Of a stretch of 38,287 nt of DNA, positions 54-38,115 are shown one piece after another. The notes beneath the pieces were generated by a model. It was not told where the DNA came from. It did not search any database and saw nothing but the letters and a program-made list of their open reading frames with translations. The stretch lies in the UHGV virus genome UHGV-1369766; one strand, given 5' to 3'. Position 1 is the stretch's first letter, and each line of letters starts with the position of its first letter. A program made the translations under genes and the position numbers. This DNA comes from a virus.

Positions 54-1313
54 TCATATTCCTATCGCCATGCCGTGGGGCATGGATGGGGCAAAGTCCG
101 ATAATTTCTGGTTCAACATAGCAATCTGATCGCTGCTGCTGTCGGCCATCCAGGCGCCGTAAACATTGAAAACCATCTGGGCGCTGGAGTGTCCCATTTG
201 GCTGGCAATGAAACTCGGATTGGCCCCGGCAGACAGCGACCAGCAGGCGTAAGTGTGTCTCGACTGATACGCCTTGCGGTGCCTTAAACCTGACCGTTTA
301 AGCGCCGCATCCCATGAGTCACCGACTGAATCGGCTTTGTATAGGTAACCTACGCTGCCACTTTTTTTAACCAACTGAGGATTGAACACAAATGTACAGT
401 CGTGAATGACCGTTCGGCCATACTCCCGCAGTTGTACCTCAACCTGATACTGCTTGCCTAACCTGGTCATTTCCGCCTGGTTCCTCAAAGCGTCAATGGC
501 TGGCTTGATCAGGTGAACGACCCTGTCGGTACCGGCTTCGGTTTTTGGTAGAGTGAAATCACCGAGTTTCGTATAATTCCGGCGTATGGTCATCGTTCCA
601 GTTTTCAGATCTATGTCTTCCCATGCGAGGGATACCAACTCACCGTGACGTAATCCTGTGTATACCGCAATTGACCACAGGTTTTTCGTTTGCTGATGCT
701 TGCAGGCATCTATAAAGCGAACGAATTCATCACGTGTGAGCGGATCTGGTTCTATCCTGGCCCTCTTTAGCGGCTTGATGCCGTTGAACGGGTTTTCACT
801 CACATAGCCATTATCAACAGCAAACTGAAACATACCCGCGATCGTGGTCATGTAGTAGTTTACCGTCACCACACTCAACCCTTTATCCCCCGCCAGCATA
901 TCCTTCCTGATATAGAGAAGCTCTTCTCTTGTCACAGACGAAACCAGCTTATTCGCGCCAACCCTCGGCAGCATGCTTCTCACCACCGATTCATACCTGT
1001 TTATGGCATTAGCGCAGATCTCCATCCGTTTAAGCTCAAGCCATTTTTCAGACAGATCTTTTACGGTGATATCTTTCTTCCCGATGCCGAAAGTTTTCAG
1101 ATTTGGCGAGTTGGGGAATTGGGCCGCATAGTCAAAGGTCCCCATGCGGATAGCGAAACAAACTGACGTTCTCAGCTCCCCGGCCACCTTCCTGTTTTTA
1201 GCGGTGTCAGGGACACCGAGGTTTTCCCTGACACGCTTACCTTTAAAAATGAACCATATGCGGAGTGACTTTCCGTGGTTCTCAACGCCCGTTGGGTATG
1301 ATTCTTTACTCAT
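54..1313 (-). CDS. int: Phage tyrosine integrase (site-specific recombinase)
   Basis: 419 aa ORF; C-terminal catalytic region with conserved R..H..R..Y pattern (LRHGE, HxxRHT, final Y); ATG preceded by GGGAGGG RBS; sits at the prophage left end next to an excisionase-like gene. Confidence 0.9.
   Translation of the reverse strand: MSKESYPTGVENHGKSLRIWFIFKGKRVRENLGVPDTAKNRKVAGELRTSVCFAIRMGTFDYAAQFPNSPNLKTFGIGKKDITVKDLSEKWLELKRMEICANAINRYESVVRSMLPRVGANKLVSSVTREELLYIRKDMLAGDKGLSVVTVNYYMTTIAGMFQFAVDNGYVSENPFNGIKPLKRARIEPDPLTRDEFVRFIDACKHQQTKNLWSIAVYTGLRHGELVSLAWEDIDLKTGTMTIRRNYTKLGDFTLPKTEAGTDRVVHLIKPAIDALRNQAEMTRLGKQYQVEVQLREYGRTVIHDCTFVFNPQLVKKSGSVGYLYKADSVGDSWDAALKRSGLRHRKAYQSRHTYACWSLSAGANPSFIASQMGHSSAQMVFNVYGAWMADSSSDQIAMLNQKLSDFAPSMPHGMAIGI
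76..93. other. Candidate attachment-site core copy (left), inside the integrase 3' end
   Basis: TGGGGCATGGATGGGGCA matches 17 of 18 positions of a copy at 38155-38172 near the right end; weak evidence only. Confidence 0.25.
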
Positions 1314-3429: not shown

Positions 3430-3897
3430 TTAAATTGCGTGAATAGCGTGACGAGGGAAGGGGAGAGTTACTGGTTCCTCGTCTGGATATATTGGCTTGT
3501 TGTGCTTGTGCCATTCAACATGACATGCTTTGCATAGCCACATCACTTCAAGAGGTTTACTGTAATCGCAGTGGTGAGCGTCTGGGTGGCATTTGCTGTT
3601 GCATTTCTGACACGTTGTTGGTCTACATAACTTACCAGATTTAATTGCTCGTTTGACTGACCATCTTGCTTGCTGTCTTTGGCGATGAGATTCCAGATAG
3701 TTCTCTCTTGCTTTGATTAATGCAACCTTGCCCTTTTCGCTTTTGTTATATTTTTTACAAGCATTATTATGTATTAGCTTTCCTATTCCTTTTTGATATT
3801 CAGTTACTCGTTTTTTAGTGCATTCCTTGCACACCTTATTTCTAGGATAAAAACCATTAGGTGGTTTATTCTCTCCACATTTTTTGCAAGTGATCAT
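3430..3897 (-). CDS. Zinc-ribbon / HNH-like endonuclease-type protein
   Basis: N-terminal CxxC...CxxC zinc ribbon, C-terminal ...DAHHCDYSKP...WLCKACHVEWH resembling an HNH motif; ATG with GGGAGAA RBS; the 5' half of the gene is visibly AT-rich relative to flanks. Confidence 0.6.
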   Translation of the reverse strand: MITCKKCGENKPPNGFYPRNKVCKECTKKRVTEYQKGIGKLIHNNACKKYNKSEKGKVALIKARENYLESHRQRQQARWSVKRAIKSGKLCRPTTCQKCNSKCHPDAHHCDYSKPLEVMWLCKACHVEWHKHNKPIYPDEEPVTLPFPRHAIHAI

Positions 3898-3912
3898 ATT
3901 TTCTCCCAATGA

Positions 3913-5552: not shown

Positions 5553-6521
5553 TTAGTAGGTTATTTTTGTTGCGAATACTTCGCCTTTTACGATGGCTGT
5601 TATGATATTTTTAGCAACATCTTCTGATGCGCCAACCTTGATAAGGTCAGCAAGTATTTTGTTATTTACTTCTTTCCGGTGAGCTTTATCCTTTGCTCTA
5701 CGCTCTTCTTCGTCCTTGATTCTTTTTTCTTCTGCTATTCTGGCTTGCTCTTTTACTTCAGCCTCGCGCCGGATTCGTTCAGCCTCCTCCTGTGCTTTTC
5801 GGCGTTCTGCTTCAATTGCCGCCTGCTTTTCTCTTTCAGCTCGTTCTGCTGCCTCTTTTGCTTCGCGCTGTGCTCGTTGCTCGGCTTCAATGCGTTCACG
5901 CTCTGCACGTTCCGCTGCGGCCTTAGCTTCTGCTTCTCGCCTTGCTGCTGCTTCAATTTCGGCTTTTGCCTTTGCTTCGGCTTCAGCTCTGGCTTTCTCT
6001 TCAGCTTCTCTTTTTAAGCGTTCTTCATGCTCTCGCTTTTCCTGCTCAGCTTTGAGTCTTGCCTCTTCTCTTTGGCGGTCAAATTCGCGATCCATCAAAA
6101 TCGCTATTTCATGGTCAGACTCAATTTGCTTTGCGAGAGCTTCAGCTGCTGCCTTAGCTTCTTCTTCGGCTTTAATCCGCGCCTGTTCTTCCTCATAATC
6201 AGTAAGAGGCTGGCGCGCCTTGGCTTTCAGTTCATCAAGGCGATCACGCACTGTCTTGCGGTTGGCATCAATTAGCTTTGGAATTTCCTTAAGTTCAGCA
6301 ACAAGGTCTTTGCCAAGACCATCGAGATATGTTTTCGTCTGCGCAACTTTATACGCCAGAGAAGCGATCTCCTTTCTGCCCTTTGCCGTTGTGATATCAG
6401 GCACAAAGGACATAACTTCACGTTCAACCTTTTGGAGAATTTCTTCAATCTGGTCGGCAGACTGAAATACAGTCATTGCATTTGCTTTTTCAATAACAAC
6501 TAAATCTGTTACTTCACTCAT
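5553..6521 (-). CDS. Hypothetical protein with long E/R/K/A-rich predicted single alpha-helix or coiled-coil segment
   Basis: 322 aa from the ATG at 6519-6521 (GGAGGAT RBS); ~110 aa of charged repeats (AEEKARAEAEAKAKAEIEAAARRE...); position analogous to the ea10/ral/sieB accessory segment of lambda. Confidence 0.65.
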   Translation of the reverse strand: MSEVTDLVVIEKANAMTVFQSADQIEEILQKVEREVMSFVPDITTAKGRKEIASLAYKVAQTKTYLDGLGKDLVAELKEIPKLIDANRKTVRDRLDELKAKARQPLTDYEEEQARIKAEEEAKAAAEALAKQIESDHEIAILMDREFDRQREEARLKAEQEKREHEERLKREAEEKARAEAEAKAKAEIEAAARREAEAKAAAERAERERIEAEQRAQREAKEAAERAEREKQAAIEAERRKAQEEAERIRREAEVKEQARIAEEKRIKDEEERRAKDKAHRKEVNNKILADLIKVGASEDVAKNIITAIVKGEVFATKITY

Positions 6522-6533
6522 ATATCCTCCATC

Positions 6534-6561
6534 AAAAAAAACTGCCCTCACACTGGAGGGC
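6534..6561 (-). terminator. Intrinsic terminator in the PL operon (tL1-like)
   Basis: Minus-strand GCCCTC-CAGTGT-GAGGGC hairpin followed by AG and eight T; sits between the 207-aa and 322-aa genes. Confidence 0.75.
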
Positions 6562-6695
6562 AAAGAAGATTTCCAATAATCAGAACAAGTCGGCTCCTGT
6601 TTAGTTACGAGCGACATTGCTCCGTGTATTCACTCGTTGGAATGAATACACAGTGCAGTGTTTATTCCGTTGTTTATGCCAAAAATAAAGGCCGA

Positions 6696-8203: not shown

Positions 8204-8572
8204 TTAGTCAGCGAAGGTTAAGACGAGAATTACCTTAATGATGTCTGCTACAACAGACACGGCCATAGATAAACCAAAGACGATCCAAGCCACAGTGATG
8301 TCTTCACTACCATCGTATAGAGTTCCGTAATCACTGGTGTAAGGCGTAAATGTCGCGCCTTGATACAATAGGTATAAGCTTGATCCATAGAGGATAAATG
8401 CAGATATCCCTTGTATTGCTATGATCACCAGAATCATGAAACGAGCTGATCTATGCGCCCAAGCCTGGCTTATTTTTTCTGATAGAGATTTCGCAATAAA
8501 AGCATGCGCTAAGCCGTAAATTGTCGAGATTGCCAACATCCCAAAAAAGCTTGCTATAGCGGTTCCAACCAT
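8204..8572 (-). CDS. Small three-helix membrane protein downstream of cI (rex-position gene)
   Basis: 122 aa from the ATG at 8570-8572 (AAGGGG RBS, 17 nt after the cI stop); three hydrophobic segments; same strand and operon position as rexAB in lambda. Confidence 0.6.
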   Translation of the reverse strand: MVGTAIASFFGMLAISTIYGLAHAFIAKSLSEKISQAWAHRSARFMILVIIAIQGISAFILYGSSLYLLYQGATFTPYTSDYGTLYDGSEDITVAWIVFGLSMAVSVVADIIKVILVLTFAD

Positions 8573-8589
8573 AATCGCCCCTTGCGTGA

Positions 8590-9306
8590 TCAAACCAGCC
8601 TTAGTTTTGTCTCAATTGCAACGCCTATAATCTTGCAGTTTCCATTGATTGGCACGAGAGGCCATGCAGGATTAAGTCCCTTGAGGTATTTATTTCCGCC
8701 GTCGATTATCAGCTTCTTGAATGTTGCTTCGTTAGAGTCAGAAAGTTTTGCTATGACCAAGCTGCCGTTGATCGCCTCCCTTCCGGTATCGAAAAGAACG
8801 AATGTTCCCTCTGGAATGCTTAACCCAACCGGTGCCGTCATTGAATCACCTTCCACTTTAAGCCAGAACGCATTACCTTGAATATGCGCGTCAGACTCAA
8901 GCCAAACATCTATGTCTTTAATGGTGTATGGTTCGCATGCTTCACACCACGAGCCAGCCTGGATACTGCTTAACACCGGATACCTCTTTCCTGCTCTGTA
9001 TTCCCCTGCATACCTTACGTTGGCATCGCTCTTAAGGCTTTCTGCCTGTTCTGCAACCTTGGCAGCAATTGACTGGCTAAAATCAGCAATTGAGACTTGC
9101 AACAGTCGTGCAAAACCAGATGCAACCTCAACGTTTAGCGCGTTTCTGCCATTAAGATAATGCCCTACCGCTCCTTGGGTGATACCCAGTTCATCAGCGA
9201 TTGAGTATTGGGTTATTCCCAATTCTTTCTTTTTTGACTCATACAAAGCCTTAAGCCGCTTAGCGTCTTCGAGCTGTTCTGTCGTCAGTGATTTTTTATT
9301 TTCCAT
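8590..9306 (-). CDS. cI: CI-type prophage repressor (HTH plus LexA-like S24 peptidase domain)
   Basis: 238 aa; N-terminal HTH (QYSIADELGITQGAVGHYLNG), C-terminal autocleavage-type domain (...VEGDSM...KL...); divergent to cro across an operator-rich intergenic region. Confidence 0.9.
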   Translation of the reverse strand: MENKKSLTTEQLEDAKRLKALYESKKKELGITQYSIADELGITQGAVGHYLNGRNALNVEVASGFARLLQVSIADFSQSIAAKVAEQAESLKSDANVRYAGEYRAGKRYPVLSSIQAGSWCEACEPYTIKDIDVWLESDAHIQGNAFWLKVEGDSMTAPVGLSIPEGTFVLFDTGREAINGSLVIAKLSDSNEATFKKLIIDGGNKYLKGLNPAWPLVPINGNCKIIGVAIETKLRLV

Positions 9307-11067: not shown

Positions 11068-12493
11068 TTTTTATGCGCCTCCCCATAGCATCGAGGCAGA
11101 GCAGGCGGTTATTGGTGGATTGCTTCTGGATGATGACAGCAGTGAGCGCGTCCAGAAAGTTCTGGCGATGCTGAAGCCTGATTCATTTTACAGCCGACCA
11201 CACAAAATCATTTTCGAAGAAATAACCAGAATGCACCGGGAGCAAAAGCCAGTAGATGGCCTGACGCTTTTCGATGAACTGGAGCGTAAATCGTTAACGG
11301 CGTCTGTTGGCGGTTTTGCTTATATCGCTGAGATCGCAAAGAACACGCCAAGCGCCGCAAACATCGTTGCCTATGCAATGCAGGTTCGCGAAACCGCAAT
11401 GGAACGCTACGCCATCAACCGCATGACTGAAGCGACGGAATTGCTCTATTCCCGCAACGGAATGACTGCGACGCAGAAGTACGAAGCTATTCAGGCGATT
11501 TTCACGCAACTGACAGACCATGCAAAAACCGGATCGCGTCGCGGCCTTCGCTCATTTGGTGAGGTCATGGAAGACTGGGTTAGCGACCTTGAGAAGCGAT
11601 TTGACCCGTCAGGCGAACAACGAGGAATGAGCACAGGGATCCCATCGCTGGACAGGATGCTGTCACCGAAAGGTCTGGTGAAAGGCTCTCTGTTTGTCAT
11701 TGGCGCTCGCCCTAAGATGGGGAAAACGACGCTATACAGCCAGATGGCAATCAACTGCGCAGTGCATGAGAAAAAGCCCGCTCTGATGTTCAGCCTTGAA
11801 ATGCCCGGTGACCAGATACTGGAAAAACTGGTAGGACAGAAGTCAGGTGTTAACCCGAATATTTTTTACCTTCCGGCGACAAATGACGCTGATGACGGCT
11901 ATCAGGGTGATTACGATGGTGACTTCAACAGGGCGATCGAAACAGCCAATCGCTTGAGTGAAATCGACCTGCTTTACATCGACGACACGCCGGGATTATC
12001 TCTGGCTCAAATCGTCAGCGAAAGTCGTCGAATCAAGCGAGAAAAAGGATGTGTTGGCATGATTCTGGTCGATTACCTGACACTAATGACTGCTGAGAAG
12101 GCCGATCGCAACGACCTTGCTTACGGCATGATCACCAAAGGACTGAAGAACCTTGCCAAAGAGCTTGATTGCGTTGTTGTGCTTCTGACACAGCTTAACC
12201 GCGCACTGGAAAGTCGAACCAATAAACGCCCATTACCAAGTGACTCACGAGATACAGGGCAGATTGAACAGGATTGCGATTATTGGGTGGGGATCCATCG
12301 TGAAGGTGCTTTTGATGACAGTGTTCCACCTGGTGAAACCGAACTAATCCTTCGTCTCAATCGTCATGGCAATACCGGCACGGTGTATTGCATTCAGGCA
12401 AATGGCGCTATTTATGACACAGACCAACAGTCCGCTGAAATGCGCCGCCGTGAACGCGAGGAACCGCAGTCCAAGAAGAAAGGAGGATTCTGA
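11057..12493 (+). CDS. Replicative DNA helicase (DnaB family)
   Basis: N-terminal SIEAEQAVIGGLLLD motif, Walker A GARPKMGKTT, DnaB-like C-terminal motifs; start ATG at 11057 preceded by GAGGGTGAA. Confidence 0.85.
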   Translation: MTDNFYAPPHSIEAEQAVIGGLLLDDDSSERVQKVLAMLKPDSFYSRPHKIIFEEITRMHREQKPVDGLTLFDELERKSLTASVGGFAYIAEIAKNTPSAANIVAYAMQVRETAMERYAINRMTEATELLYSRNGMTATQKYEAIQAIFTQLTDHAKTGSRRGLRSFGEVMEDWVSDLEKRFDPSGEQRGMSTGIPSLDRMLSPKGLVKGSLFVIGARPKMGKTTLYSQMAINCAVHEKKPALMFSLEMPGDQILEKLVGQKSGVNPNIFYLPATNDADDGYQGDYDGDFNRAIETANRLSEIDLLYIDDTPGLSLAQIVSESRRIKREKGCVGMILVDYLTLMTAEKADRNDLAYGMITKGLKNLAKELDCVVVLLTQLNRALESRTNKRPLPSDSRDTGQIEQDCDYWVGIHREGAFDDSVPPGETELILRLNRHGNTGTVYCIQANGAIYDTDQQSAEMRRREREEPQSKKKGGF

Positions 12494-12521
12494 TGACCAT
12501 CTACATCACTGAGCTAATAAC

Positions 12522-12553
12522 AGGCCTGCTGGTAATCGCAGGCCTTTTTATTT
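12522..12553 (+). terminator. Intrinsic terminator after the helicase gene (tR2-like position)
   Basis: AGGCCTGC-tggtaatc-GCAGGCCT hairpin followed by TTTTTATTT. Confidence 0.6.
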
Positions 12554-12568
12554 GGGGGAGAGTAAATC

Positions 12569-12775
12569 GTGGCTGAGTTTATGCTCGTCGCATTCAAATG
12601 CGTTGGCGTTGGATGGATTCTTCTGACGTTTTTTATTGTTCTGCATAGCTACATTCGTCTTGTGAATGACGGCAAAGACCCATGGTATACGTTGTTTGGC
12701 GCTGCATTTGTCTGGGTGATTATCGGTGTTATGCCTGTTGTCGTAGCAAAAATGGCGTGGCGTTTTGTGAGTTGA
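12569..12775 (+). CDS. Small two-helix membrane protein
   Basis: 68 aa, GTG start with GGGGGAG RBS; hydrophobic; preferred over the overlapping minus-strand ORF because all neighbours are on the plus strand. Confidence 0.4.
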   Translation: MAEFMLVAFKCVGVGWILLTFFIVLHSYIRLVNDGKDPWYTLFGAAFVWVIIGVMPVVVAKMAWRFVS

Positions 12776-12792
12776 ACTGAGGGTAAGTATCG

Positions 12793-13056
12793 ATGGACGA
12801 ATCAAGAAAGCAGTTTGAAGAATGGTTTGAAAATTACACCGGATGTGATCCTAAAAATAAAATATACGCCAATATGGTTGAGATGTATTGGCAAGCGTGG
12901 CAGGCATCGCGAGCAGCTATCGAGATTGAGCTGCAAAAGCCAAAGAAAGGCCCACTTCCCGGTGATTATCACATTGGCTATGACTCAGGTGCAGAATCGC
13001 AATACGAAAGCGATGTAGAGGCTATCCGCGCCGCTGGAATCAAAGTGAAGGAGTGA
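12793..13056 (+). CDS. Hypothetical protein with Ea22-like C-terminal motif
   Basis: 87 aa; GAGGG RBS; C-terminus ...EAIRAAGIKVKE echoes the C-terminus of the Ea22-like protein at 2292..2969. Confidence 0.5.
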   Translation: MDESRKQFEEWFENYTGCDPKNKIYANMVEMYWQAWQASRAAIEIELQKPKKGPLPGDYHIGYDSGAESQYESDVEAIRAAGIKVKE

Positions 13057-13244
13057 GCATGAGTCGACGAAGTAGCTTTTTGGGGTTTGTAATATTCCTG
13101 TTCTGCACTGGTTACATCGTAATCTGGTCAATTTCGAACATTGACCGTGGCGTGGCATATCTCATTGTAATGTTCTTTCCTTTGTTTCTTGGGTGGTACG
13201 CCGCAAGGTTGCTGGAAGAATGGGGTTACAGGCATAAAAAATAA
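13053..13244 (+). CDS. Small two-helix membrane protein
   Basis: 63 aa; AAGGAG RBS; start overlaps the upstream stop. Confidence 0.5.
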   Translation: MSMSRRSSFLGFVIFLFCTGYIVIWSISNIDRGVAYLIVMFFPLFLGWYAARLLEEWGYRHKK

Positions 13245-13301
13245 AGGAGTGTTCAGTGAAGCAAACCCTTTTTTATTGGATTAAGAACGAGGGGGATCCT
13301 G

Positions 13302-13514
13302 ATGGACACCGTTAACGGAATGTGTTCAGACGCACCGCGTGCCAAAAAATGTAAATGCGGAAAATCACCGACAATATTCGACATGGAGAACGGGTGCCAA
13401 ATCTACTGCGCTAACCACGCTGCTGTGGCGGCCGCGAATTATCGCAGTGCGGTAACGGAGTGGAATAACATGAAATCTGTTAGAGAGGGAAGTCATGAAA
13501 AAACTAACCTTTGA
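13302..13514 (+). CDS. Hypothetical Cys-rich small protein
   Basis: 70 aa; GAGGGGG RBS; CKCG...C...C pattern. Confidence 0.5.
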   Translation: MDTVNGMCSDAPRAKKCKCGKSPTIFDMENGCQIYCANHAAVAAANYRSAVTEWNNMKSVREGSHEKTNL

Positions 13515-13935
13515 AATTCGATCTCCAGCACATCAGCAAAACGCTATTCACGCAGTACAGCAAATCCTTCCAGACCCAACCAAACCAATCGTAGTAACCA
13601 TTCAGGAACGCAACCGCAGCTTAGACCAAAACAGGAAGCTATGGGCCTGCTTAGGTGACGTTTCTCGTCAGGTTGAATGGCATGGTCGCTGGCTGGATGC
13701 AGAAAGCTGGAAGTGTGTGTTTACCGCAGCATTAAAGCAGCAGGATGTTGTTCCTAACCTTGCCGGGAATGGCTTTGTGGTAATAGGCCAGTCAACCAGC
13801 AGGATGCGTGTAAACGAATTTGCGGAGCTATTAGAGCTTATACAGGCATTCGGTACAGAGCGTGGCGTTAAGTGGTCAGACGAAGCGAGACTGGCTCTGG
13901 AGTGGAAAGCGAGATGGGGAGATCGGGCTGCATGA
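13495..13935 (+). CDS. ninB: NinB (Orf) recombination protein
   Basis: MKKLTFEIRSPAHQQNAIHAVQQILPDPTKPIVVTIQERNRSLDQNRKLWACLGDV... is near-identical to my recollection of lambda NinB. Confidence 0.9.
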   Translation: MKKLTFEIRSPAHQQNAIHAVQQILPDPTKPIVVTIQERNRSLDQNRKLWACLGDVSRQVEWHGRWLDAESWKCVFTAALKQQDVVPNLAGNGFVVIGQSTSRMRVNEFAELLELIQAFGTERGVKWSDEARLALEWKARWGDRAA

Positions 13936-14459
13936 CTATCAAATCAAATACGCCAGCACACGACAAGGACTGCTGGCAAACGCCGCTTTGGCTTTTTGAT
14001 GCACTGGATATTGAGTTTGGATTCTGGCTGGATTCGGCAGCGAGCGACAAAAATGCTCTGTGTGCTCACTGGCTAACTGAGGCCGACGACGCGCTCAATT
14101 CTGAGTGGGTAAGCCACGGTGCAATCTGGAATAACCCACCGTACAGCAATATCAGGCCGTGGGTGGAAAAAGCTGCTGAGCAGTGCATACAACAGCGACA
14201 GACGGTAGTGATGCTTGTGCCAGAGGATATGTCTGTCGGATGGTTCAGCAAGGCTCTGGAGAGTATTGACGAAGTTCGCATCATCACTGATGGACGGATT
14301 AATTTTATCGAACCATCGACGGGGCTGGAGAAGAAGGGAAACAGCAAAGGCTCCATGCTGCTGATTTGGCGACCGTTCATCAGTCCTCGACGGATGTTTA
14401 CTACTGTATCCAAAGCGGCATTGATGGCGATCGGGCAGGGCGTCAGGAGGGCGGCATGA
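13932..14459 (+). CDS. Phage Dam-type DNA N6-adenine methyltransferase (orphan)
   Basis: ATG overlaps the ninB stop (ATGA); contains WNNPPYS (the (D/N)PPY catalytic motif); no adjacent restriction endonuclease gene. Confidence 0.8.
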
Positions 14460-14638
14460 GGCGACAGCGACGAAGCATCACCGACATAATCTGCGAAAAC
14501 TGCAAATACCTTCCAACGAAACGCTCCAGAAATAAACGCAAGCCAATCCCAAAAGAATCTGACGTAAAAACCTTCAATTACACGGCTCACCTGTGGGATA
14601 TCCGGTGGCTTAGAGAACGTGCGAGGAAAACAAGGTGA
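14456..14638 (+). CDS. ninE: NinE
   Basis: [52 protein letters not shown]... matches lambda NinE as recalled; AGGAGGG RBS. Confidence 0.8.
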
Positions 14639-14805
14639 TTGACCCAAATCGAAGTTACGAACAAGAAAGCGTCGAGCGGGCTTTAACGTGCGCTAACTGC
14701 GGTCAGAAGCTGCATGTGCTGGAAGTTCACGTGTGCTCCGATTGCTGCGCAGAACTGATGAGCGATCCGAATAGCTCAATGTACGAGGAAGAAGACGATG
14801 AATGA
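14635..14805 (+). CDS. ninF: NinF (56 aa)
   Basis: GTG start overlapping the ninE stop; ...[29 protein letters not shown]...[12 protein letters not shown]... matches lambda NinF as recalled; below the ORF-track cutoff. Confidence 0.7.
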
Positions 14806-15523
14806 GTTAATAAATGGCAATGCCATCAAAATGACAAGCATTGAAATCGCTGAGTTGGTAGAAAGCCGCCATAGCAATGTAAAAGTATCCATAGATAGAT
14901 TGGTGAAACGTGGCGTTATCAAGCCTCCTGCATTGCAGCACACTAACATAATCAATGATTTAGGTGTTATTACCGGGAAGCGTGATTTCTACGTCTTCGA
15001 GGGCGAACAAGGAAAGCGAGACAGCATTATTGTCGTCGCCCAATTGTCGCCGGAATTCACCGCTCGTCTTGTTGACCGTTGGCGAGAGCTTGAAGAAACT
15101 GCGGTTAATATCCCCAAAACGCTACCAGAAGCGTTGCGCCTTGCTGCTGATCTTGCTGAGCAGAAAATGCAACTGGAAAACCAGCTCGCAATTGCCGCAC
15201 CTAAAGTTGAGTTTGCCGATCGCGTTGGCGAGGCCAGCGGAATTTTGATTGGAAACTTTGCAAAGGTTGTCGGTATTGGCCCAAACAAACTGTTTGCATG
15301 GATGCGCGATCACAAAATCCTTATTGCTTCAGGTTCCCGGCGCAATGTGCCAATGCAGGAATATATGGATCGCGGCTATTTCACAGTGAAAGAAACAGCG
15401 GTCAACACAAATCACGGAATACAGATATCGTTCACCACAAAAATCACCGGGCGTGGTCAACAGTGGCTGACCAGAAAGCTGCTCGATAACGGAATGCTGA
15501 AAGTAACAGGGGAGGCTGCTTAA
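14798..15523 (+). CDS. Phage antirepressor-like protein (N-terminal Ant/Rha-type domain, KilA-C-like C-terminus)
   Basis: 241 aa; the N-terminal SIEIAELV...NV... and C-terminal ...FAKVVGIGPNKLFAWMRDHKIL... patterns are typical of this antirepressor family. Confidence 0.7.
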   Translation: MNELINGNAIKMTSIEIAELVESRHSNVKVSIDRLVKRGVIKPPALQHTNIINDLGVITGKRDFYVFEGEQGKRDSIIVVAQLSPEFTARLVDRWRELEETAVNIPKTLPEALRLAADLAEQKMQLENQLAIAAPKVEFADRVGEASGILIGNFAKVVGIGPNKLFAWMRDHKILIASGSRRNVPMQEYMDRGYFTVKETAVNTNHGIQISFTTKITGRGQQWLTRKLLDNGMLKVTGEAA

Positions 15524-15813
15524 TGGCTAACCTACGCAAAGAAGCGCGCGGCAGAGAATGCCAGGTACGTATTTACGGCGTATGCAATGGCAATCCTGAA
15601 ACTACAGTTCTGGCACATTACCGGATGGCTGGAATTTGCGGAACGGGAATGAAGCCTGACGACCTGATCGGCGCATGGGCTTGTAGTGACTGCCACGCGG
15701 AGATCGACCGACGCACAATGATTCTCGACAACAAAGACGCCAGACTTTACCACCTCGAAGGCGTGATCAGGACGCAGGCGATACTGCTGAAGGAGGGGAA
15801 GATTAAGTCATGA
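15523..15813 (+). CDS. YbcO-like (DUF1364) nin-region protein, putative nuclease
   Basis: ...RGRECQVRIYGVCNGNPETTVLAH...C..C..DCHAEIDRR... resembles DLP12 YbcO as recalled; start overlaps the upstream stop. Confidence 0.7.
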   Translation: MANLRKEARGRECQVRIYGVCNGNPETTVLAHYRMAGICGTGMKPDDLIGAWACSDCHAEIDRRTMILDNKDARLYHLEGVIRTQAILLKEGKIKS

Positions 15814-16172
15814 ACGAATATCAGTTTGTGCTTCCATACCCACCGTCGCTGAATACTTACTGGCGAAGACGAGGAAGCCAATACTACATCAGCGATAAAG
15901 GCCAGAAATACCGAAAAGACGTTCAGCAAATCATTCGCCAACTCAAGTTAGACATTTTCACCAAATCACGACTCCGTATCAAAGTCATCGCAGACGTTCC
16001 AGACTCCCGCCGCCGCGACCTCGACAACATCCTGAAAGGTTTACTCGACTCCCTTATCCACGCCGGATTTGCGGAAGACGACGAGCAATTCGATGACATT
16101 CGCGTAATTCGTGGTGTGAAAGTACCAGGCGGAAGGCTTGGAATAAAAATCACCGAACTGGAGAACGCATGA
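15810..16172 (+). CDS. rusA: Holliday junction resolvase RusA
   Basis: 120 aa; PPSLNTYWRRRG...D.DN..K...D motif typical of RusA. Confidence 0.85.
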   Translation: MNEYQFVLPYPPSLNTYWRRRGSQYYISDKGQKYRKDVQQIIRQLKLDIFTKSRLRIKVIADVPDSRRRDLDNILKGLLDSLIHAGFAEDDEQFDDIRVIRGVKVPGGRLGIKITELENA

Positions 16173-16357
16173 ACGCCACAATTCAAACGATACCAGAGCT
16201 TCTTATCCAGACACGAGGCAATCAGACCGAAGTGGCAAGGATGCTTTCCTGCGCAAGAGGAACAGTGCTCAAGTACAACCGAGACAGTAAAGGCGAGCGT
16301 CACGTAATAGTTAACGGCGTCCTGATGGTCAAACAGGGAAAAAGGGGAAGGCCATGA
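16169..16357 (+). CDS. ninH: NinH-like protein
   Basis: ...GNQTEVARMLSCARGTVLKY... resembles lambda NinH (...GNQTEVARRLKCSRGTVRKY...) as recalled. Confidence 0.7.
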   Translation: MNATIQTIPELLIQTRGNQTEVARMLSCARGTVLKYNRDSKGERHVIVNGVLMVKQGKRGRP

Positions 16358-16977
16358 GACTCGAAAGCGTAGCTAAATTTCATTCGCCAAAAAGCCCGAT
16401 GATGAGCGACTCACCACGGGCCACGGCTTCTGACTCTCTTTCCGGTACTGATGTGATGGCTGCTATGGGGATGGCGCAATCACAAGCCGGATTCGGAATG
16501 GCTGCATTCTGCGGTAAGCACGAACTCAGCCAGAACGACAAACAAAAGGCTATCAACTATCTGATGCAATTTGCACACAAGGTATCGGGGAAATACCGTG
16601 GTGTGGCAAAGCTTGAAGGAAATACTAAGGCAAAGGTACTGCAAGTGCTCGCAACATTCGCTTATGCGGATTATTGCCGTAGTGCCGCGACGCCGGGCGC
16701 AAGATGCAGAGATTGCCACGGTACAGGCCGTGCGGTTGATATATCAAAAACAGAGCTGTGGGGGAGAGTTGTTGAGAAAGAATGCGGAAGATGCAAAGGT
16801 GTCGGCTATTCAAGAATGCCAGCAAGCGCCGCATATCGCGCTGTAACGATGCTAATCCCAAACCTTACCCAACCCACCTGGTCACGCACTGTTAAGCCGC
16901 TGTATGACGCTCTGGTGGTGCAATGCCACAAAGAAGAGTCAATCGCAGACAACATATTGAATGCGGTCACACGTTAG
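16354..16977 (+). CDS. Q: Late-gene antiterminator Q
   Basis: 207 aa; appears near-identical to lambda Q as I recall it (MRLESVAKFHSPKSPMMSDSPRATASDSL...); followed by a PR'-like promoter. Confidence 0.9.
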   Translation: MRLESVAKFHSPKSPMMSDSPRATASDSLSGTDVMAAMGMAQSQAGFGMAAFCGKHELSQNDKQKAINYLMQFAHKVSGKYRGVAKLEGNTKAKVLQVLATFAYADYCRSAATPGARCRDCHGTGRAVDISKTELWGRVVEKECGRCKGVGYSRMPASAAYRAVTMLIPNLTQPTWSRTVKPLYDALVVQCHKEESIADNILNAVTR

Positions 16978-17019
16978 CTGCATGATTGCCACGGATGGCA
17001 ACATATTAACGGCATGATA

Positions 17020-17048
17020 TTGACTTATTGAATAAAATTGGGTAAATT
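17020..17048 (+). promoter_or_regulatory. PR'-like late promoter with Q-utilisation region (-35 TTGACT, 17-bp spacer, -10 TAAATT)
   Basis: Immediately downstream of Q; the string gatattgacttattgaataaaattgggtaaatttgactcaacgatgg matches lambda PR' as I recall it. Confidence 0.7.
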
Positions 17049-17083
17049 TGACTCAACGATGGATAAATGCACTCGTTAAATAA

Positions 17084-17119
17084 AGCCCTGAGTTAATAGC
17101 TCGGGGCTTTTTGCGTTTT
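17084..17119 (+). terminator. Intrinsic terminator just downstream of PR' (tR'-like)
   Basis: 9-bp stem (AGCCCTGAG / CTCGGGGCT, one G-U pair), 7-nt loop, then TTTTTGCGTTTT. Confidence 0.7.
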
Positions 17120-17409
17120 AAGCACGACCTTTCTGAAAGCACATCAAACCAAATACCAGACAGACCAAAATAATCACCTTATCCGCTGTGGCTACGGTGC
17201 GGTGTGCTTTGCATAAAAGAAAACCAGCGCAATGGCTGGCTTCGTGAAAGCGGGTGGCATGAGGTTGCGCTAACAACCTCCTGCCGTTTTGCCCGTGCAT
17301 ATCGGTCACGAACAAATCTGATTACTAAACACAGTAGCCTGGATTTGTTCTATCAGTAATCGACCTTATTCCTAATTAAATAGAGCAAATCCCCTTATTG
17401 GGGTAAGAC

Positions 17410-17733
17410 ATGAAGATGCCTGAAAAACATGACCTGTTAGCCGCCATTCTCGCGGCAAAGGAACAAGGCATCGGGGCAATCCTTGCGTTTGCAATGGCGT
17501 ACCTTCGCGGCAGATATAATGGCGGTGCGTTTACAAAAACACTAATCGACGCAACGATGTGCGCCATTATCGCCTGGTTCATTCGTGACCTTCTCGACTT
17601 CGCCGGACTAAGTAGCAATCTCGCTTATATAACGAGCGTGTTCATCGGCTACATCGGTACTGACTCGATTGGTTCGCTTATCAAACGCTTCGCTGCTAAA
17701 AAAGCCGGAGTAGAAGATGGTGGAAATCAATAA
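17410..17733 (+). CDS. S: Holin (lambda S type, dual-start motif MKMPEKH)
   Basis: 107 aa, near-identical to lambda S as recalled; Met-Lys-Met dual start typical of the S107/S105 holin/antiholin pair. Confidence 0.9.
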
Positions 17734-18193
17734 TCAACGTAAGGCGTTCCTCGATATGCTGGCGTGGTCAGAGGGGACTGATAACGGACGACAGAAAACC
17801 AGAAATCATGGTTATGACGTCATTGTAGGCGGAGAGCTATTCACTGATTACTCCGATCACCCTCGCAAACTTGTCACGCTAAACCCAAAACTCAAATCAA
17901 CAGCAGCCGGACGTTACCAGCTTCTTTCCCGTTGGTGGGATGCCTATCGTAAGCAACTTGGCCTGAAAGACTTCTCTCCGAAAAGTCAGGACGCTGTGGC
18001 ATTGCAGCAGATTAAAGAGCGTGGCGCTTTACCGATGATTGATCGCGGTGATATTCGTCAGGCAATTGACCGTTGCAGCAATATCTGGGCTTCACTTCCG
18101 GGCGCTGGTTATGGTCAGTTCGAGCATAAGGCTGACAGCCTGATTGCAAAATTCAAAGAAGCAGGCGGAACGGTCAGAGAGATTGAGGTATGA
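17717..18193 (+). CDS. R: Endolysin (lambda R-type lytic transglycosylase)
   Basis: 158 aa, near-identical to lambda R as recalled. Confidence 0.9.
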
Positions 18194-18829: not shown

Positions 18830-19372
18830 ATGAATTATCCAACTATCGTTAACGGCATCGATTTCCGAGATCTGATTTTTGTGGCAAACAACGATCCGGT
18901 TACAGATTCTTTTATGGTGGCAAAAGCATTTGGAAAGCTGCCGAAGAACGTGGTTCGTGACATTGAACGAACCATGGAAGCTTGCCCTCCTGAGTTTGAT
19001 ACAAAGCTCAACTTTGAGCTTTGCTATAAAAACAATGAGTTACAGAATGGTAAGCCGCAAAAATTCTACCGTCTCCGCAAGGATGGGTTGATGCTTTTGG
19101 TTATGTCCTACACCAAAAAAGAAGCAATGCGTATCAAAATTGCTTACATCAACGCATTTAACTGGATGTACGCCATGCTTCAGGTTGGTCATCGTCAATT
19201 TGAAGAAGAGAGGAATGCCGTAATGCTGGAGTACATGAAAGAGAAGGATGTTGCCAGCATGTCAGGTCGCCTGCTAAATCGCTGGGGCAAAATTAAGAAG
19301 CCACAGCTGCTGGCTAGAATTGAACGCCTTGAACAGCACGGGCAAACCGTAATCCCCGGACTCATCAATTAA
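18830..19372 (+). CDS. rha: Rha-family phage regulatory protein
   Basis: 180 aa; N-terminal ...FMVAKAFGKLPKNVVRDIERTME... pattern typical of Rha; sits between lysis genes and terminase, as rha does in P22. Confidence 0.65.
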   Translation: MNYPTIVNGIDFRDLIFVANNDPVTDSFMVAKAFGKLPKNVVRDIERTMEACPPEFDTKLNFELCYKNNELQNGKPQKFYRLRKDGLMLLVMSYTKKEAMRIKIAYINAFNWMYAMLQVGHRQFEEERNAVMLEYMKEKDVASMSGRLLNRWGKIKKPQLLARIERLEQHGQTVIPGLIN

Positions 19373-34376: not shown

Positions 34377-34862
34377 TTATCTGATGTTACTGCTACTGTT
34401 GCATGTGACTGTATTTCCAAACCCTGAATTGCAGTTTGTGTAAGTGTCAACTCGTGTTGGATAGGGTTGAGTTATAACAGGCTGTCTCGCTTTTTGCTCG
34501 ATCGCTTGCATTGTGTTTACAGCCTGATAATTCAATAAAGCCTGCTGGAATGCTTGGCTTTGTGCTATTTGTTGGGCTTGTTCTTGGCTTTGTAATTGAA
34601 CATAAAGATTCTGAAGCTCAAGTCTTGCCTGTGCGTCACTTATCTTGCCTTCATCGACACCTTGCCCGAGCATCTTTGCAGCAAGGACATACAACTTAGG
34701 TGTTGGTGCTGATGCCATGCGTGAGTCGTTCTTCACACTGGCATCAAGGCAATTAGCCATATCGCTAAGCTTTTGATAGCGTTGTTCGCAACTTGCTTGA
34801 TAGTCACTTACTTTTGCGCATCCAACCAGCAGAAGCGGGATAATTAACAGTGATTTTTTCAT
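34377..34862 (-). CDS. Predicted lipoprotein (moron; candidate superinfection-exclusion or lysogenic-conversion factor)
   Basis: 161 aa from the ATG at 34860-34862 (AAGGAGAG RBS); signal peptide with lipobox MKKSLLIIPLLLVGC; Gln-rich mature region; minus strand, AT-rich, in the sieA/immI-equivalent slot between ejection genes and tailspike. Confidence 0.65.
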   Translation of the reverse strand: MKKSLLIIPLLLVGCAKVSDYQASCEQRYQKLSDMANCLDASVKNDSRMASAPTPKLYVLAAKMLGQGVDEGKISDAQARLELQNLYVQLQSQEQAQQIAQSQAFQQALLNYQAVNTMQAIEQKARQPVITQPYPTRVDTYTNCNSGFGNTVTCNSSSNIR

Positions 34863-34932
34863 ATGGTTAACTCTCCTTAGTTTTTCACAGGATATCATGA
34901 AGGCAATGCCATTTTAGCCGGAAACTAGATTT

Positions 34933-35199
34933 CTATGTTTCCTTCTTATTATTGCTATACATGGTCTTAAGCGTATCAAAGACAATTTTCTTAACCATCT
35001 CAGATTGTTGTTCTGCCATACGCTCTGCGTCGTCAATGTAAACAGATGCAGAGCTTTGTTTAGCCAATGATTCTTCAATCGCTGCAATTATCTCTGAGTT
35101 CAGCGACCTGTTATTCATCTTCGCACGCTGTTTAATTTTCGCGTGTAGTTCGTGCGTAAGCCTCAAGTGGAACTGCGCCTCATCGTATTTGCTGTACAT
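34933..35199 (-). CDS. mnt: Mnt-like ribbon-helix-helix repressor
   Basis: 88 aa from the ATG at 35197-35199; RHH core (QFHLRLTHELHAKIKQRAKMNNRSLNSEIIAAIEESL) and C-terminus ...DDAERMAEQQSEMVKKIVFDTLKTMY parallel P22 Mnt (...NDAERLADEQSELVKKMVFDTLKDLY) as recalled. Confidence 0.8.
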   Translation of the reverse strand: MYSKYDEAQFHLRLTHELHAKIKQRAKMNNRSLNSEIIAAIEESLAKQSSASVYIDDAERMAEQQSEMVKKIVFDTLKTMYSNNKKET

Positions 35200-35260
35200 C
35201 CTTGATGCCCTCACCAGTGGGTGGAATGGCATCGTAAAACCTACTGGATAAATCAACAAT

Positions 35261-35334: not shown

Positions 35335-37383
35335 ATGACTAATACCAATTACTTGGTCTCTATGCCGTCCACTCCTTTTTCGGCGCCACGAGCATTTAAA
35401 TCAGTGGCGAATGGGAAAATCTATATCGGAAACCCTGACACTGACCCGGTAAATCCTGCCAACCAAATCCCGGTATATATCGTTAATGAGGATGGCTCCG
35501 AGGTTCAGGTTTCACAGCCAATCATCATTAACGCCGGCGGCTTCCCGGTCTATAACGGCCAGATTATGAAGTTCATCACCAAACAGAACTTCAGTATGGC
35601 GGTTTATGATGCGTATGGAGCACAGCAGTTTTATTGGCCTGATTTATCAGAAATTGACCCATCTGCAATCATAGCCATGCTTTCGACTAGCGAAGGATCT
35701 GGAATGATTGGATGGGCGCGAAATTATTCTTGCGAGCTTGCAGCTACTGTTTCCGTATTTCTATCTGCACAAAAGATTAATTTATGGGAATATCGACATC
35801 TGGCGCTCGATACTATTGTTGATGGGGCTGAAGTCGTTGACTGGACACCCGCCATGATTCAGGCGCTGGTTGATGGTGCAAAATATAAGCGGCAGGTTTA
35901 TGCACCAGGCGGGAGATATTACTTTCAGAAAATGCCTGAGTTTGTAAATTTGGATTCCTCCGGTTCAACAACAAACATGTCCATGTATTCGCTGGTTGGT
36001 GACGGACACGATAAAACTATTTTCTGGACAGACAGTCTGGTTGGCAAGGAAATGCATTTCAGTACATGCCGCTTTTATTTTGATAAATTTAGTGTGCAGC
36101 GCGTGCTACAGGGGGATGATGCCGCATACCGGGATAGCAAGATACCCCTCATGCAGCTTGGACGCAGTACTGACATCTCTGCGGCCAGGCTCGGTTATAT
36201 GGGGGATGTACGCTTCAACGGCAGTCCGTGGGGTCTGAACATAGAGCACTGCTGGGACTCAATTTTCCAGGATGTCATTGTCCATAATTTCCAGACATCA
36301 GGCATTCGCATAGGCATGCATGATGTAGACAACAGTAATAACCTGTTGTTTATCAGAACACATATTGAAAGCTGTCAGTATAAAGGTGAAAACCTGTGTC
36401 GCGCCTTTGCTGATATGTCATATAAGACTGGTTCGCGGGTAAACCATAACATCACCCTCATTCAGCCGCATATTGAGCCTGTTAATCTGCGTTGCCATAT
36501 TTTTTATTCATCCTATGGAAAAAATATCAAAGTCATCAATCCGGCATTCAACCGAAACAATGGCTCCGTGGATAAAGGGTTATACCTCGACCCTTCTCTC
36601 GCTGCGCCAGCGGTGTACTCGTCGGATGGTGTCAACATCCACATTGATGGTGGTCAGATTCAGCATATCGGGCCACGCAGTGACACCGTTGCTCCCCTGT
36701 TTAAGTTTGTTGGTACGCATAAAGGTTGGCGGTGTGACAGCTACATTGATACCGGGAAGGAGACTTCACGCACTGATTTACTGTCTTCAGTTGACGTTTC
36801 AAGAAGCAATAATGGGTTACGTGAAATTTCATTTAAGGGAGCGACAGTCAACTCATTTACCTCGATGAGCTCTGTAGGCGACAGACTGAGAGTGGCTCCT
36901 TTAAATGACCTGCAAAAAGTATTCGATCTGGTTGCAGAAACCTTCATCCCACCGGGGGAAACGAACACTATCGCACGGATTATTGCGATGTATTCCAACA
37001 CGCAGGATTTATCCACTCCCCAGCAAAAGGCGTGGGATATCACCAGTGCCGGACATGCATCATTTAAGGCGTTGCGCGGTCAGCAGTACATCATTCAGGC
37101 CGGGGCAGTGGCGACGGTTAACGTAGGTGTCGGGGCACTGGAGCGGCGCGGAACTTATCTGATTAGCGGGGCGGAAAACAATAACCAACTTTTTGCGATG
37201 TTCTTTAATGTTCCAGGACAGGCTCCCAGTGAAATTAAAACTGGCTCCAGCGTTAATTTATCAAGAGTGCAACCTGATGCATCTGTCACCGGCAAGCTGT
37301 GTGTGTATCAGAATAATCAATATATCAATCTTGAAAACAGAACCGCATCCGCGGTGACTGTTAACGTCAATTTTTTTGCGTGA
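35335..37383 (+). CDS. Tailspike protein: P22-like N-terminal head-binding domain fused to a divergent receptor-binding domain
   Basis: First ~110 aa (…[47 protein letters not shown]…MAVYDA…) parallel the P22 gp9 N-terminus as recalled; the remaining ~570 aa do not. Confidence 0.9.
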
Positions 37384-37630: not shown

Positions 37631-37722
37631 ATACTTGTTTTTCAGATGGCTATTCCTGTCGATTCAAGCTGGTATAGCCATCACTTCAATTCACCTGATT
37701 GTCATCAGGCTAGGTGGATATT

Positions 37723-38115
37723 ATGGATTATATTGGTTTCGATGTAATTTTAATCTGGTATGCTGGGGTAGGTTTCTTTTTATGGACTGTCGCCCAGATT
37801 ATCAGGGCGGGTGAAACAAATGGAGTATTCAATAATATTGCATGCCTGTTGCTGTTTGTTATCGCATGGCCGAAGATAATGTGGACACTTTGCTGCCTTA
37901 TTGTAAAGAGACTTTTTGATGTTGATCATCAATTATTATCAGAAAGCAGAGGTGTCAAGCGAGGCGGCGGGACGGAGCTTGCCACGCTGAGAGGAAGGTC
38001 GCTGATTACCGAAGATGGTGAAGCGATCGAGGGTGAAGCCTTGGACGATGTTAGCGTCATCGGGGTCGTGACATTTACTATCTGCGATGTCCGCGGGGAC
38101 AATACCGTTGTTTAG
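37723..38115 (+). CDS. Hypothetical protein with hydrophobic N-terminal half (extent uncertain)
   Basis: ATG at 37723 with AGGTGG RBS; AT-rich hydrophobic first half, then a compositionally different GC-richer tail that may not be coding in this frame. Confidence 0.3.
   Translation: MDYIGFDVILIWYAGVGFFLWTVAQIIRAGETNGVFNNIACLLLFVIAWPKIMWTLCCLIVKRLFDVDHQLLSESRGVKRGGGTELATLRGRSLITEDGEAIEGEALDDVSVIGVVTFTICDVRGDNTVV

Follow-up and report, generated by a model that had tools for sequence, protein, structure and literature searches.

The 38,287-nucleotide virus genome UHGV-1369766 (the window, meaning this whole stretch of DNA) is a complete P22-like, HK620/IME10-like mosaic prophage, and its nin region carries a gene for a phage N6-adenine DNA methyltransferase, dam, between ninB and ninE. 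The dam open reading frame (ORF) has 175 codons and runs from an ATG at 13932 to a TGA at 14457–14459. Its start codon shares bases with the ninB stop (gcATGAct; ninB TGA at 13933–13935, an overlap of 4 nt), its stop shares bases with the ninE start (ggcATGAgg; ninE ATG at 14456), and a Shine-Dalgarno-like GGGGAG element lies 10 nt 5' of the dam ATG. Translation of dam is likely to be coupled to that of ninB and ninE through the two ATGA overlaps. Translational coupling to ninB had been proposed in an earlier reading of the letters alone (the original prediction), whose position for a methyltransferase with an NPPY motif, 13932–14459, was exact. The longest mechanically called ORF over dam starts at a GTG at 13872 and would encode 195 amino acids (aa). 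This form was rejected: its overlap with ninB would be 64 nt long, both profiles (Pfam and TIGR01712) start at residues 2–4 of the 175-aa product, and homologues in RefSeq likewise have 175 aa.

The dam product matched Pfam PF05869, 'DNA N-6-adenine-methyltransferase (Dam)', at E 1.4e-64 and 217.3 bits (cutoff 28.1) over profile positions 1–167 of 169, and the NCBIfam equivalog TIGR01712, 'phage N-6-adenine-methyltransferase', at 265.9 bits (cutoff 97.05; E 9.6e-80). Both scores exceed chance by far, and the methyltransferase profile search that had been suggested as a check thus ended in assignment to these two families. The product also matched phrog_111 ('DNA methyltransferase') in PHROGs, and its top PADLOC model was oMTase, orphan methyltransferase, with type II methyltransferase models matching too. 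Only PF05869 was reported among Pfam matches at E <= 0.01; PF02086, the D12 profile of the host Dam, was not among them. The protein is 100% identical to that of phage Louie and shares 174 of 175 residues (99.4%) with the Dam of VT2-Sakai (M.EcoVT2Dam; BAA94133), the sole change being a conservative I112V. At the nucleotide level there are seven differences from VT2-Sakai dam; six are synonymous, which indicates that the gene is under purifying selection. More distant relatives are the Dam proteins of phages HP1 (38% identity, E 1e-32) and T1 (34%, E 9e-27). We conclude that the ORF is very probably a standard lambdoid-phage dam, encoding a minimal S-adenosylmethionine (AdoMet, or SAM)-dependent N6-adenine methyltransferase of the HP1/T1/VT2 'phage Dam' family, without a restriction partner. 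As such it is already known: the gene has a name in PGAP, Pfam, TIGRFAMs and also REBASE, and its product is one conservative residue away from an enzyme cloned in 2001.

Conservation of motifs was assessed in an alignment of 26 homologues at 58–98% identity and, separately, in one of the VT2, T1 and HP1 Dam enzymes. Invariant or nearly invariant positions among the 26 homologues were D13-x-W15-Q-T17-P18, E28-F-G-F-x-L33-D34-x-A36, G63-A-I-W-x-N68-P-P-Y71-S72, V93-M-L-x-P97-x-D99, G121-R…F125 and N137-x-K139-G140. The core of these motifs is also kept in the VT2, T1 and HP1 enzymes: in both sets DxWxTP, LDxAAS and NPPYS vary little or not at all, and the tetrapeptide N68-P69-P70-Y71 is unchanged throughout. 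Neither alignment shows a change at L33 or D34; A36 is invariant only in that of the 26 homologues and A37 only in that of the three phage enzymes. As judged from these alignments, the catalytic and cofactor motifs are intact, cofactor binding being presumed. The original prediction had been staked on conserved SAM-binding motifs, and a motif-I-like LDxAAS is present and conserved.

An AlphaFold2 model of the product (predicted template modelling score 0.80) has a strand at residues 31–36 followed by a low-confidence loop at 37–43, and its predicted fold is that of a class I Rossmann-like methyltransferase. Matches in fold comparison included CamA, MmeI, type I HsdM subunits, M.BseCI, T4 Dam and DpnM; gamma-type enzymes aligned over 129–138 residues and the alpha-type GATC enzymes (EcoDam, T4 Dam and DpnM) over about 103 residues at 6–12% identity. 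A Foldseek search with the model returned PCIF1 as the only Protein Data Bank (PDB) match below E 1e-3, and a PDB sequence search gave chance matches only (E >= 0.32), so the phage Dam family has no close solved structure. Motif I comes before NPPY, at a spacing of only about 30 residues. The alpha-type architecture, in which a target-recognition domain lies between motifs I and IV, was not found; the product is little beyond a catalytic Rossmann core, without a separate target-recognition domain.

The target is almost certainly the adenine of GATC, because the product lies one conservative change (I112V) from M.EcoVT2Dam, which is reported to be GATC-specific. M.EcoVT2Dam, the orphan methyltransferase of prophage VT2-Sa, is stated to target 5'-GATC-3' (PMC6602927, citing Radlinska & Bujnicki 2001, PMID 11720311), and homologues at 99% identity to it are tabulated as GATC enzymes in the same paper; VT-2 and HP1 are among the phages with Dam-like proteins (PMC7556043). 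The report of GATC for M.EcoVT2Dam comprises these two papers and their REBASE-derived tables. The label 'Dam-type' given in the original prediction would therefore hold for specificity, by virtue of the 99.4% identity to M.EcoVT2Dam, and does not hold for family, which is PF05869 and not D12 PF02086. A specificity other or broader than GATC, which would bring a pattern of methylation not available from the host, is very unlikely. [quoted passage not shown] How GATC is read without an obvious target-recognition domain is a structural question for the whole family, not one specific to this window, and it concerns about 15,800 clusters at 50% identity without any solved structure.

No restriction endonuclease was detected among the ∼58 window ORFs (every ORF of at least 50 aa) by Pfam, PHROGs, PADLOC or NCBIfam, which bears out the earlier claim that there is no partner endonuclease in the window. 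With none in the whole prophage, the dam product is therefore an orphan enzyme. The nucleases of the window are the terminase, YbcO, RusA and a 159-aa HNH-like protein, with no others; an adjacent or co-resident cognate endonuclease, as expected of a type II restriction-modification system, is lacking, and the neighbours of dam are NinB and NinE. Were dam nevertheless the methylase half of such a system, with its endonuclease elsewhere in the prophage, the 159-aa protein would be the candidate, since it matches phrog_2340 'endonuclease'; in Stx2a_F723, moreover, a gene annotated 'endonuclease' lies directly 5' of dam. The former, however, is encoded 10 kb away on the other strand in a recombination module, between SSB/Rad52-type annealase genes and an ea22-like region; it has no PADLOC match and is a probable free-standing nuclease of the HNH or homing type. 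The latter is a NUMOD4-HNH homing endonuclease and not a restriction enzyme, and dam is found in many phages with unrelated left arms. We consider that a restriction-modification pairing within the prophage is already effectively refuted, its remaining chance being negligible. In Stx2a_F723 (AP012533.1 19179-19781) the homing endonuclease, NUMOD4-HNH_3 and I-HmuI-like, replaces ninB and has the same 4 nt overlap with the dam start as ninB has here.

The statement that lambda lacks dam was also confirmed. A tblastn search of the lambda genome with the dam product gave chance matches only (E >= 0.47), and the lambda gene order is ninB-ninC-ninD-ninE, ninC being PAPS-reductase-like, so that ninC and ninD occupy the slot. 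Nucleotide homology between the window and lambda is 98.9% identity in ninB, ends exactly at the ninB stop (13935) and restarts at 14463 inside ninE, with 94.4% identity in ninE/F. It follows that dam precisely replaces ninC and ninD, an exact gene-boundary replacement typical of lambdoid mosaicism.

Expression of dam would depend on N antitermination, since a terminator-like hairpin stands upstream of the nin genes, where lambda has tR2. Promoter-like matches in 12300–17500 were not above shuffle expectation, giving no sign of a promoter of its own for dam. On the simplest reading, dam would be transcribed delayed-early from pR with the nin operon, during lytic growth and under N antitermination. 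This bears on a comparison of methylation between a lysogen and a cured strain, in which a lack of difference had been taken to speak against function. Such a comparison is invalid as a refutation, because GATC is methylated by E. coli Dam in any case, and because repression of the dam operon is expected in the lysogen.

The orthologous dam of Phi24B was recovered as expressed in lysogen cultures, and its authors speculated that it supplements host Dam (PMC3342100). One could accordingly suppose that phage Dam acts in lysogens or early in infection, tuning phage or host promoters, or the stability of lysogeny, via GATC methylation. Stable lysogeny of 933W requires host Dam, which the phage enzyme could supplement (PMC3342100, citing Murphy et al. 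2008), and the window has two small GATC clusters, at 8382–8448 and 15666–15765. Such an epigenetic role is nonetheless improbable: dam lies within the pR delayed-early operon, behind a terminator and with promoter signal no higher than background, and any added regulation is hard to envisage when host Dam has the same specificity. M.EcoMIV and M.EcoMV, prophage methyltransferases outside the phage Dam family, are moreover predicted to be inactive in the lysogen (PMC4659465).

To our knowledge, nobody has shown the reason why phages of Dam-positive hosts carry a GATC methylase of their own. The most likely and most economical role would be to top up GATC methylation on fast-replicating phage DNA. 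Phage Dam would supplement a limiting host Dam, so that phage DNA becomes fully GATC-methylated before packaging. Full methylation could protect this DNA from methylation-sensitive GATC cleavage of the MboI/DpnII type and from MutH acting at unmethylated or hemimethylated sites, and might avoid the binding of SeqA to hemimethylated phage DNA. We favour this model as the most economical because host Dam methylates the DNA in P22, lambda and L virions incompletely (PMC8022706).

The use of GATC in the window was compared with expectation. There are 98 GATC sites where a second-order Markov model predicts 191 (ratio 0.51; z -5.4 against dinucleotide shuffles). Among the 16 four-base palindromes only CTAG has a lower ratio, its 7 sites falling five-fold short of the 34 expected. 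No GATC-free stretch is longer than that at 15765–17855, which extends from RusA to the holin. Observed/expected ratios were 0.37 in Louie, which has dam, 0.55 in lambda, which does not, and 0.78 in T1, which does; across the window, Louie, lambda and T1 there was no consistent trend of GATC usage with dam carriage, four genomes being too few for one. Depletion in the window is similar to that in Dam-less lambda, so carriage of dam has not relaxed GATC avoidance.

Several considerations weigh against the picture of a GATC-specific, lytically expressed enzyme that completes the methylation of phage DNA. The sources for the GATC assignment are secondary citations and tables derived from REBASE. 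Dam is in any case supplied by the host, and the biological role of the phage enzyme is unproven. GATC is about two-fold depleted in the window, as in lambda, which fits poorly with a simple protective role. Finally, the recovery of the Phi24B orthologue from lysogen cultures means that expression may not be strictly lytic, though spontaneous induction may explain it.

The same data bear on whether the enzyme mainly shields progeny DNA from the restriction enzymes of future hosts with sites that contain or overlap GATC, protection from host restriction having been raised in the original prediction. This is possible, though in our estimate clearly less than an even chance. DefenseFinder classes such methyltransferases as anti-restriction-modification in enterohaemorrhagic E. 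coli phages carrying dam (PMC12502783), the PADLOC matches are to orphan and type II methyltransferase models, and the undermethylation of lambdoid virion DNA by host Dam (PMC8022706) leaves room for a protective top-up. The phage, however, still avoids GATC as Dam-less lambda does, and fully methylated GATC is sensitive to DpnI-like methyl-dependent enzymes; in the literature we found no experiment tying the phage Dam family to escape from restriction.

A more speculative proposal, which we rate as unlikely, is that phage Dam is not simply redundant but is a counter-measure to a host process that detects GATC left unmethylated or hemimethylated in phage DNA that replicates fast or recombines. 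Such a process might be MutHLS cleavage of recombination heteroduplexes, SeqA sequestration or an as yet undescribed defence that reads GATC methylation. If true, this would explain why dam is translationally coupled between the recombination mediator gene ninB and other nin genes, and why purifying selection keeps it in ∼29% of E. coli genomes although the host has the same activity. In a variant of the idea, phage Dam would hypermethylate the host chromosome, derailing mismatch repair and oriC timing in lytic growth. As an annotation, dam matters little, and the remaining interest belongs to the whole family and is not specific to this window.

The gene is widespread. At >=95% identity, dam DNA occurs in 244 phage records, mostly Stx1- and Stx2-converting phages and also Sf101, mEp213 and Louie; the ninB and ninE neighbours are retained in these otherwise different phages. 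Near-identical dam was present in 1566 of 5426 complete E. coli genomes (∼29%), a single genome having as many as five copies; the annotation is nearly always 'phage N-6-adenine-methyltransferase', with NinB and NinE on either side. Family members were found by tblastn in 2130 phage records of many genera, and a profile search of 1.84 billion representatives of 50%-identity clusters retrieved 15,816 clusters with a limit of E <= 1e-3 and 6,540 with one of E <= 1e-10. The protein database also holds Dam-NinE fusion entries of 233–235 aa (PF05869 plus PF05322), one cluster of which has 41 members; these may reflect loss of the overlapping ATGA stop or may be gene-calling artefacts. In other chimeric database calls, Dam is combined with a NinB, RusA, CII or holin domain.

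The remainder of the window is that of a P22-like prophage (Table 1). The integrase gene is followed by the SSB/Rad52-type recombination module, kil, N, cI, cII, an O-like initiator and a DnaB-like helicase, then by the nin region, Q, the lysis genes, terminase, P22-type portal and coat proteins, ejection proteins and the tailspike. Pfam matches place NinF, the Roi-like ANT/KilAC protein, YbcO, RusA, NinH and antiterminator Q 3' of NinE. No tRNA was found by a tRNA scan. The genes for the Nmad5-domain and phrog_1376 proteins adjoin in the pL operon between N and kil; parts of this segment occur in 333 phage records, both genes at 95% coverage in APC_JM3.2 only. Directly 3' of cI, the ORF with a cluster of three GATC sites in 67 bp may be an accessory gene that the lysogen expresses. 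Just 5' of the tailspike gene, the Mnt/Arc-like repressor gene adjoins that of a 173-aa phrog_6067 protein (function unknown), the pair spanning 34380–35259 on the minus strand.

Table 1. Positions of dam, its motifs and other features of the window
Feature	Position	Strand	Basis or remarks
Integrase	54-1313	-	First in window gene order
159-aa Cys/His-rich HNH-like protein (HHCDYSKP…WLCKACHVEWH)	3433-3909	-	phrog_2340 'endonuclease'; no Pfam match
354-aa protein, phrog_1376 (function unknown)	5556-6617	-	No Pfam, NCBIfam or PADLOC match
Nmad5-domain protein, 227 aa	6699-7379	-	PF18757 'nucleotide modification associated domain 5', full length, E 1.3e-71
129-aa ORF, phrog_6534 (function unknown)	8207-8593	-	Directly 3' of cI, same strand, lambda rexAB position
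Intrinsic-terminator-like hairpin and T-run, strong	12522..12545	+	Just 3' of the DnaB-like helicase gene, at the lambda tR2 position, 5' of the nin genes
ninB, Orf-family recombination mediator	13495..13935	+	Pfam NinB, E 1.2e-54
dam, 175-aa phage N6-adenine DNA methyltransferase	13932..14459	+	PF05869 and TIGR01712 profile matches; M.EcoVT2Dam orthologue
N-terminal DxWxTP motif of Dam, D13-C-W-Q-T-P18	13968..13985	+	D13, W15, T17 and P18 invariant in VT2/T1/HP1 Dam
Motif-I-like strand and loop of Dam, FWLDSAAS, residues 31-38	14022..14045	+	Presumed AdoMet-binding element
Motif IV of Dam, NPPY, residues 68-71	14133..14144	+	Catalytic and adenine-binding tetrapeptide; invariant
ninE	14456..14638	+	Pfam NinE, E 3.2e-43
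Roi-like ANT/KilAC protein, Rha/antirepressor-type	14798-15523	+	Inserted between ninF and ybcO
Q antiterminator	16354..16977	+	Distal end of the delayed-early nin operon with dam
Rha+ORF11CD3 protein, Rha/antirepressor-type	18830-19372	+	After the lysis cassette
Mnt/Arc-like repressor gene, immI-type	34936-35259	-	Within the 34380-35259 pair
Tailspike	35335-37383		Window gene order
133-aa ORF	37714-38115	+	After the tailspike; C-terminus matches a UmuD-like PHROG

Among known systems the closest is M.EcoVT2Dam of the Stx2 phage VT2-Sakai (933W L0094), which has the same length and the same ninB-dam-ninE arrangement with 4-nt overlaps; it differs in that the window dam resides in a P22-like podovirus-type prophage and not in an Stx-converting phage. 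The lambda nin region has flanks near-identical to those of the window, whereas its slot holds ninC and ninD, with no Dam homologue genome-wide. The founding members of PF05869/TIGR01712, HP1 Dam (orf13) and T1 Dam, share with the window Dam the DxWxTP, LDxAA and NPPYS motifs and the C-terminal R..F and N.K positions, and are likewise orphans located in phage early or replication regions. T1 Dam differs by a 45-residue N-terminal extension and a 14-residue insertion, and the genomic neighbourhoods of the HP1 and T1 genes are unrelated to that of the window. The Dam of E. coli is a protein of 278 aa. Together with T4 Dam and DpnM, it belongs to the alpha-type D12 enzymes (PF02086), which have the same m6A chemistry as the window Dam and the GATC target ascribed to it; the window Dam differs from them in having no PF02086 match and in having motif I directly before NPPY, with no inserted target-recognition domain. 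The window enzyme is thus a functional analogue of the host Dam and not a member of the D12 family, a 'Dam' by virtue of its reported specificity.
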